Shown here: positions 24,534-24,609 of the stretch, one piece after another | Layout: the number at the start of each line of letters is the position of its first letter | How positions within the stretch are numbered: position 1 is the stretch's first letter | IMG/VR virus record: IMGVR_UViG_2579778802_000015 | Direction: 5' to 3' (one strand) | Length of the DNA: 48,953 bases | Source of the DNA: a virus | Taxonomy: Duplodnaviria > Heunggongvirae > Uroviricota > Caudoviricetes | Program-made: the position numbers and the translations under genes | The notes under the pieces: generated by a model | Told to the model about the DNA's origin: nothing | The model's input: only the letters and a program-made list of their open reading frames with translations | Databases searched by the model: none

Positions 24534-24561
24534 ATCCCCGCCCCGACAGACCTGTGCTACC

Positions 24562-24597
24562 GGAAATAAAAAAGGCCATCAGTGTTTTACTGATGGC
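24562..24597 (-). terminator. Strong intrinsic terminator immediately upstream of the holin
   Basis: Minus-strand GGCCATCAGT-aaaac-ACTGATGGCC hairpin followed by TTTTTTATTTCC. Confidence 0.7.
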
Positions 24598-24609
24598 CCT
24601 GCCCCGCCG

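Follow-up and report, generated by a model that had tools for sequence, protein, structure and literature searches.

A predicted intrinsic terminator between the cargo genes and the S21-type holin gene of a lambdoid prophage

A hairpin followed by a U-tract is the standard termination signal for unmodified Escherichia coli RNA polymerase (RNAP), and polymerase modified by the antiterminator Q is generally highly resistant to terminators. A terminator is in itself an ordinary feature of a lambda-like phage. In lambdoid phages Q-modified RNAP reads through terminators, and the terminator tR' of Stx phages has been mapped by Term-seq (PMC7547250). Terminators have also been predicted inside the late operon of the P22-like phage L, where two roles have been suggested for them, the blocking of spurious transcription or partial termination, and where the authors call their functions unknown (PMC8022706). 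Here we describe a hairpin that directly precedes the holin gene S on the minus strand of a prophage sequence of 48,953 nt; by ‘the window’ we mean this whole stretch of DNA.

The hairpin resembles several described elements, and differs from each. Like the lambdoid late terminators that Q-RNAP reads through (lambda tR' and sites downstream), it is a late-strand hairpin with a U-tract, downstream of Q. Unlike tR', it lies 4.7 kb from Q, is not promoter-proximal and would not give rise to the short PR' leader RNA; identity with tR' was rejected on the distance from Q and on the terminators at 28435, 27978, 27765 and 27496 that lie between. As with moron terminators (the Juhala/Hendrix concept; PMC8065619), it closes a block of accessory genes that lies between Q and the lysis cassette, but neither a cargo promoter nor a compositional contrast was detected, and the hairpin persists when the cargo is absent or replaced. 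It shares with the predicted phage L terminators (PMC8022706) a location inside an operon with a single antiterminated promoter; however, the phage L example stands at the end of the procapsid module, whereas the window hairpin stands before the holin. The EPEC small RNAs PasA and PasC (PMC8550237; bioRxiv 10.64898/2026.05.13.724894) occupy the same esterase–holin neighbourhood and end in a hairpin with a U-tract, but they run convergently, on the strand opposite the late operon, and the window hairpin is predicted to terminate on the late strand only. By coordinates and sequences (PMC8550237 Table S6) the Pas genes are on the opposite strand, on which no T-run is present at the hairpin, and an identity with PasA/PasC was rejected; EPEC prophage PP2 has a late-strand hairpin in addition to PasA. 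Finally, the lambda S sdi stem-loop and the Shine–Dalgarno-sequestering hairpin of the S21 leader are also RNA hairpins upstream of a dual-start holin gene. These overlap the Shine–Dalgarno sequence or the start codon, whereas the window hairpin ends 39 nt upstream of the ATG and has a U-tract; an sdi-like translational role was rejected on this distance and on the fold of the leader (z = -0.30). Rfam returned no family at the hairpin site, at the gathering threshold or at E <= 1, and among the Hfq-bound EHEC sRNAs (EcOnc) of Tree et al. 2014 that were retrieved by name from Table S2 none lies near the estimated Sp5 DUF826–S junction.

The late operon and its hairpin

The window carries a lambdoid prophage that has its late operon on the minus strand. 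This region shares 99.7% identity with Escherichia phage PhiR12_3 from ECOR13, and about 80% with 933W and other Stx phages. The late operon runs from Q through a DnaD_N-like gene, three STnc100/PasD-like units, nanS-p, DUF1378, DUF826 and a spacer to S, R and Rz; the flanking genes named in a first-pass annotation of this DNA (holin S, the nanS-p cargo and Q) are borne out by Pfam. Its elements, all on the minus strand, are as follows.

29774..29289, minus: antiterminator Q (PF06530, 7e-53)
28561-29154, minus: DnaD_N-like gene, 197 aa, GC 0.40-0.44, between Q and the STnc100 array
28435..28414, minus: late-strand terminator (terminator scan)
27466..28141, minus: three tandem STnc100/PasD-like sRNA units (Rfam), each with a late-strand terminator at its end
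28141..27950, minus: STnc100/PasD-like unit (Rfam, 145 bits)
27914..27739, minus: STnc100/PasD-like unit, degenerate (Rfam, 30 bits)
27674..27466, minus: STnc100/PasD-like unit (Rfam, 130 bits)
27978..27959, 27765..27746 and 27496..27477, minus: terminator stems of the STnc100 units (terminator scan)
27264..25261, minus: nanS-p-type sialate O-acetylesterase, DUF1737 + SASA + DUF6645 (ORF list, Pfam)
24926..25120, minus: DUF1378 gene (PF07125, 7e-36)
24610..24900, minus: DUF826 gene (PF05696, 8e-25)
24318..24533, minus: S21-type holin S, class II, pinholin-like, dual start MYQM (PF04971, 5e-35)
23780..24313, minus: lysozyme R, hydrophobic N-terminus, SAR-type by inspection (PF00959, 3e-24)
22820..23287, minus: Rz spanin (PF03245, 2e-50)

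From the stop codon of Q to the hairpin there are 4.7 kb, which hold about 3 kb of cargo and at least four late-strand terminators. Comparison with locus L106 indicates that nanS-p probably starts at an ATG about 30 nt farther in than the listed TTG. The best match to the promoter consensus on the late strand (28492..28465, TTTACG-16-TATCAT, 9/12) lies just 3' of the DnaD_N-like gene and is followed by the terminator at 28435. PR' could not be placed with confidence; in the consensus scan the Q-proximal spacer (29288-29155) holds weak candidates only, and a publication on pR' diversity supplied no consensus that could be applied. In another holin locus, L129, the terminator next to the holin is formed by the 3' end of an STnc100-like RNA; this suggests that STnc100/PasD-like RNAs could be transcripts of the PR'-leader type. 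The MYQM dual start of the holin (24522-24533, minus) is that of 933W and contains no Lys, unlike the MKSM of the phage-21-like holin loci fetched; the antiholin/holin distinction may work differently in the MYQM holin.

The junction between DUF826 and S reads as follows.

24612..24610, minus: stop codon TAA of DUF826 (sequence)
24572..24600, minus: complete stem-loop, AGGGCCATCAGT / AAAAC / ACTGATGGCCTT (sequence, scan, fold, and pairing in 12 homologues)
24598..24589, minus: left stem arm GGCCATCAGT (sequence)
24588..24584, minus: hairpin loop AAAAC, 5 nt (sequence)
24583..24574, minus: right stem arm ACTGATGGCC (sequence)
24573..24564, minus: T-tract TTTTTTATTT, U6AU3 in the RNA (sequence)
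24564..24571, minus: rest of the U-tract beyond the stem, the first two T of TTTTTTATTT being paired in the stem
24534..24563, minus: S leader with Shine–Dalgarno GGGGCGGGGA (sequence)
24533..24531, minus: start codon ATG of holin S (sequence)

Ten Watson–Crick pairs form the stem, which a G.U pair (24599/24573) and an A-U pair (24600/24572) extend to 12 bp; in the terminator consensus scan six of the 12 pairs are G-C and the loop is 5. On the strand that encodes DUF826, the hairpin begins 9 nt 3' of the stop codon of this gene, and the ATG of the S21-type holin follows 30 nt after the end of the U-tract and 39 nt after the end of the stem. Direct reading of the sequence thus confirms the perfect 10-bp hairpin with a T-run that the first-pass annotation had placed on the minus strand before S, and the range assigned to it coincides exactly with the DUF826–S intergenic spacer (24534-24609, 76 nt). 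As is usual for intrinsic terminators, the stem is G+C-rich and within about 5-14 bp, the loop is within 3-8 nt, a U-rich tract lies directly 3' of the stem, and the structure is co-oriented with the gene end just upstream. We interpret the element as a canonical Rho-independent terminator that ends the nanS-p/DUF1378/DUF826 block, directly ahead of the lysis cassette. The stem also forms on the plus strand, but no T-run follows it there, so the hairpin is expected to be unidirectional and to act on the late strand only.

The hairpin is far more stable than its composition would predict. Alone it folds at -19.4 kcal/mol (z = -5.05), a value reached by 0 of 200 shuffles, and in its 107-nt context the z-score is -3.71; the S leader and start region have no significant fold (z = -0.30). 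It ranks among the best terminator-like sites between 19 and 33 kb in the consensus scan. When a strong hairpin is defined by a stem of at least 10 bp, at least five G-C pairs and at least six T in 8, seven distinct sites qualify in the window, whereas a dinucleotide shuffle yields 0.13 hits on average, and hairpins of such strength are about 50 times rarer in the shuffled window. The d'Aubenton-Carafa formula gives the window hairpin a terminator score of +36 and the hairpin of 933W a score of +6.

Conservation and recurrence

The 181 nt around the hairpin match 217 phage records, most of them Stx-converting. Among complete E. coli genomes, 719 of 5426 have a match. An earlier description of this terminator was not found in the literature searched, and the GenBank record of 933W annotates another terminator and not this hairpin. 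In the homologous hairpin of 933W the stem is interrupted by one U.C mismatch and the T-run is shorter, so the strength of the hairpin is not uniformly maintained. In EPEC E2348/69 a homologous hairpin stands 46 nt before the holin of prophage PP2.

To follow the pairing we used 12 distinct variants, which comprise the window, IMG/VR and GTDB loci, PhiR12_2, PhiR5_1, three STEC strains, a deer isolate, E. albertii and EPEC PP2. Across these, 93.1% of stem cells are paired, compared with 23-71% when the 3' partners are slid. Two pairs show compensatory changes, from G-C to A-U at pair 14/41 and from A-U to G-C at pair 18/36, and at pair 19/35 U-A, U-G and C-G all occur. The loops vary freely (AAAAC, AGTTTTG, AAACA, ACTTA, GGTGA). 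This covariation is moderate evidence that the pairing has been kept; it is not overwhelming because the family of 12 is modest in size and its members are closely related. Formal covariation counting was restricted to this family, as the wider set of stems is not alignable by sequence.

Is a terminator at this position peculiar to the present cargo? A search with the holin protein yielded 143 loci, which gave 99 unique upstream regions in 54 clusters. A strict terminator, defined as a T-run behind a perfect stem of 5 bp or more that includes three or more G-C pairs, no more than 200 nt upstream of the holin, is present on the sense strand in 34 of the 54 clusters and on the antisense strand in 13, against a background of 15% of 1429 tiles from the same loci. 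An energy-based detector finds 36 of 54 against a background of 29% (Fisher p = 2e-8). The starts of the T-tracts cluster 39-60 nt and 103-126 nt before the holin ATG. The remaining 20 clusters have no strict terminator, and several of these have imperfect ones. The tail TTTTTTATTYCC recurs in other holin loci behind stems of unrelated sequence (GGCTGCC/GGCGGCC, GGGTCGC/GCGGTCC and GCCTCGG/CCGGGGC). Upstream of the holin lie unrelated genes, among them DUF826, a SASA esterase, two Q families, a DNA methylase, TolA_C, AraC-type and TerB-like genes and unknown proteins. A Q of family PF06323 adjoins the holin in some clusters, including L129, and in the cargo-free L014 class Q (PF06530) is followed by 365 nt and then S; by its position the terminator-like structure before S in this class is probably tR' itself. 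Because the upstream gene differs from cluster to cluster, a terminator before an S21-type holin is a recurrent design that is not tied to this cargo.

A possible lysis gate and competing explanations

Based on these observations, we propose that the intrinsic terminator gates the lysis cassette and is read through only by Q-modified polymerase, and we consider this reading probable. The consensus scan detects no promoter-like site in the 30 nt between the hairpin and S, so S, R and Rz would be reached only by a polymerase that ignores the hairpin. In the lysogen, unmodified RNAP that starts past the STnc100 terminators, either at a weak cargo promoter or by spurious initiation in acquired DNA, would form the hairpin at the U-tract and be released about 30 nt before S. 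As a result the lysogen would be spared the lethal holin and endolysin. Upon induction, Q would load onto polymerase at the late promoter and confer resistance to hairpin-dependent termination; the modified polymerase would then pass the four or more earlier terminators as well as the hairpin, and S, R and Rz would be transcribed. The hairpin would thus keep stray, non-antiterminated transcription out of the holin and endolysin genes and, secondarily, provide upstream transcripts with a stable 3' end, while its loop may be a tolerated recombination joint, since both sides of the hairpin are exchangeable modules. The gate may be redundant, because any PR' transcript made by unmodified polymerase would have ended at the STnc100 terminators and no promoter was found in 27466-24610. 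As a regulatory model, the scheme is plausible.

The first-pass annotation had suggested that upstream morons such as nanS-p could be expressed in the lysogen without triggering lysis. In the corresponding version of events the hairpin would terminate an autonomous moron: nanS-p, together with DUF1378 and DUF826, would have its own promoter, be expressed in the lysogen and end its transcript here. We regard this version as unlikely, even though the last cargo gene ends 9 nt before the hairpin and morons have been described with their own promoter and terminator (review PMC8065619). Expression data from uninduced EPEC E2348/69 can be cited on its behalf. The DESeq2 baseMean values for PP2 are 102.2 for the esterase, 3.5 for the holin, 3.2 for the lysozyme and 1.0 for Rz (PMC8550237 Table S2), or about 55, 17, 6.5 and 2.3 per kb (esterase 1851 nt, holin 207 nt, lysozyme 498 nt). 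The esterase counts are low but non-zero and above those of the holin per kb; the drop from esterase to holin is in the direction that a lysis gate predicts as well, with counts that are tiny and with the convergent PasA gene between the two.

Against an autonomous moron, the late strand has no sigma-70-like site of at least 9/12 in 27466-24610, and a cargo promoter was not found upstream of nanS-p or of DUF1378 either by consensus scan or by eye, where weak or non-sigma-70 sites may escape the scan. The terminators at 28435, 27978, 27765 and 27496 would stop unmodified PR' transcripts before nanS-p. The base composition of nanS-p is like that of the neighbouring phage genes rather than that expected of a moron: GC is 0.44-0.56 across nanS-p, DUF826, S and R, with most values at 0.49-0.55, and a lower range (0.40-0.44) is confined to the DnaD_N-like gene near Q. 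The presence/absence polymorphism typical of morons is seen, as DUF1378 and DUF826 are absent from the L007 class; in L106 the hairpin directly adjoins nanS-p, and other loci carry other cargo. The L007 class has the hairpin without DUF1378 and DUF826, and similar terminators precede S beside quite different genes, including Q, so the hairpin tracks the boundary of the holin and not the cargo. By qPCR, nanS-p rises by 1-2.4 logs (10-250-fold) with mitomycin C, in parallel with stx2a (PMC10462455), and because of this parallel nanS-p appears to behave mainly as a Q-dependent late gene. Of the earlier interpretation, the proposed dependence of lysis gene expression on Q-modified polymerase is supported, in that a strong terminator within the late operon, the lack of room for a promoter before S, the conserved pairing and the recurrence all fit a lysis gate; the expression of nanS-p in the lysogen fares poorly in view of the lack of a good promoter, the three STnc100-type terminators upstream and the induction by mitomycin C.

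A different function is suggested by the way in which sequence identity is distributed over the junction. As far as the loop, PhiR12_2 (L151) matches the window at 98%; beyond it, identity falls to 65% in the leader and 79% in S, where PhiR12_2 instead matches 933W (88% in the leader, 99% in S). The L007 class shows the reverse pattern, being unrelated to the window upstream (55%) and 92% identical in the leader, and some BLAST matches in E. coli genomes (H133-H139) start inside the hairpin. Because identity to the window switches across the loop and E. coli matches start within the hairpin, recombination joints fall in or at it. Locus L161 was also compared with the window at 24572-24600, with joints in the loop of the terminator hairpin. 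The element might then be mainly a linker at a module boundary, a conserved palindrome where lambdoid phages recombine and where termination is incidental; the identity switches in PhiR12_2 and the L007 class and the matches that begin inside the hairpin speak for this. We nevertheless think it improbable as the main function. A linker requires no U-tract, and unrelated stems with the same T-rich tail, together with compensatory changes that preserve pairing, are as expected if termination is under selection. Gate and joint can coexist in one element.

It is more improbable still that the hairpin is an element of RNA stability or dosage, which would tune S and R expression and lysis timing through partial termination of Q-modified RNAP, or protect transcripts as a hairpin left after RNase processing. 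Partial termination is one of the two roles suggested for the intra-operon terminators of phage L (PMC8022706), and there is a second strong terminator between R and Rz. On the other side, the leader downstream of the hairpin lacks significant structure (z = -0.30). The general terminator resistance of Q-modified polymerase also weighs against a dosage role. A functionless chance hairpin, whose sole support is the abundance of lax terminator-like motifs (14.2 expected in 14 kb), is effectively refuted by the shuffle counts (about 50-fold fewer such sites), the fold z-score of -5.05 and pairing conserved across divergent prophages.

What would a lysis gate before S mean for the lysogen? If our reading is right, phage release, and toxin release in Stx relatives, hangs on a second, local checkpoint besides tR'. 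A strong hairpin here, as opposed to the weaker, mismatched type of 933W, could alter basal lysis, spontaneous toxin release and the fitness of the lysogen. It would also provide a concrete role for intra-operon terminators whose function phage genomicists have called unknown (PMC8022706). Otherwise, the finding amounts to routine annotation of a terminator absent from current records such as that of 933W. More tentatively, we speculate that selection maintains a lysis gate before nearly all S21-type holins, in the form of a terminator that is kept at either of two distances from the ATG (about 39-60 and 103-126 nt) whatever the upstream gene. Such a gate would add a local Q-dependence beyond tR', and its loop would double as the joint at which cargo and lysis modules are swapped; lysogens without it would leak holin and SAR endolysin and be measurably less stable. 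This generalization is possible, though less likely than not.

Further elements in the window

Several other elements were observed in the course of the analysis. The second strong terminator-like hairpin of the late strand lies between R and Rz (23657..23689, minus; AAAACCCCG...CGGGGTTTT). It is followed by two small ORFs, 23441-23656 and 23295-23516, that have no Pfam match; at the equivalent place 933W has an ant gene. On the plus strand, a strong terminator at about 27410-27464 consists of CCCGCGCTTCCCGGCGCGGG and T8 and is preceded by CACGTTTTGTTGTTTATTCCTTGCC. By eye this element is close to the EPEC RIL-seq candidate E2348C_1409.E2348C_1408.IGR (PMC8550237 Fig. S5); it has no Rfam match to AgvB or AsxR, and is likely to be a convergent sRNA antisense to the late operon. 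Another candidate for a convergent sRNA, at about 25170-25256 (plus strand), lies just 3' of the nanS-p stop codon, where PasC/PasA would be expected. Both a promoter-like TTGACA-N17/18-TTAGAA and a terminator, CCGCCAG...CTGGCGG with T7, are present in it, and in sequence it resembles PasA/PasC weakly.

Upstream of the Q region, Rfam places the Hfq-binding RNA isrK at 32128..32051 and the C4 antisense RNA at 32025..31941 (both minus), above the gathering score. A palindromic hairpin at 5630-5655 (ACCCCGGTATC...GATACCGGGGT) has T-runs on both strands and may be a bidirectional terminator. More strong terminator-like sites are found at about 1252-1279 and at 43294-43319 on the minus strand, and at 37197-37222 on the plus strand.
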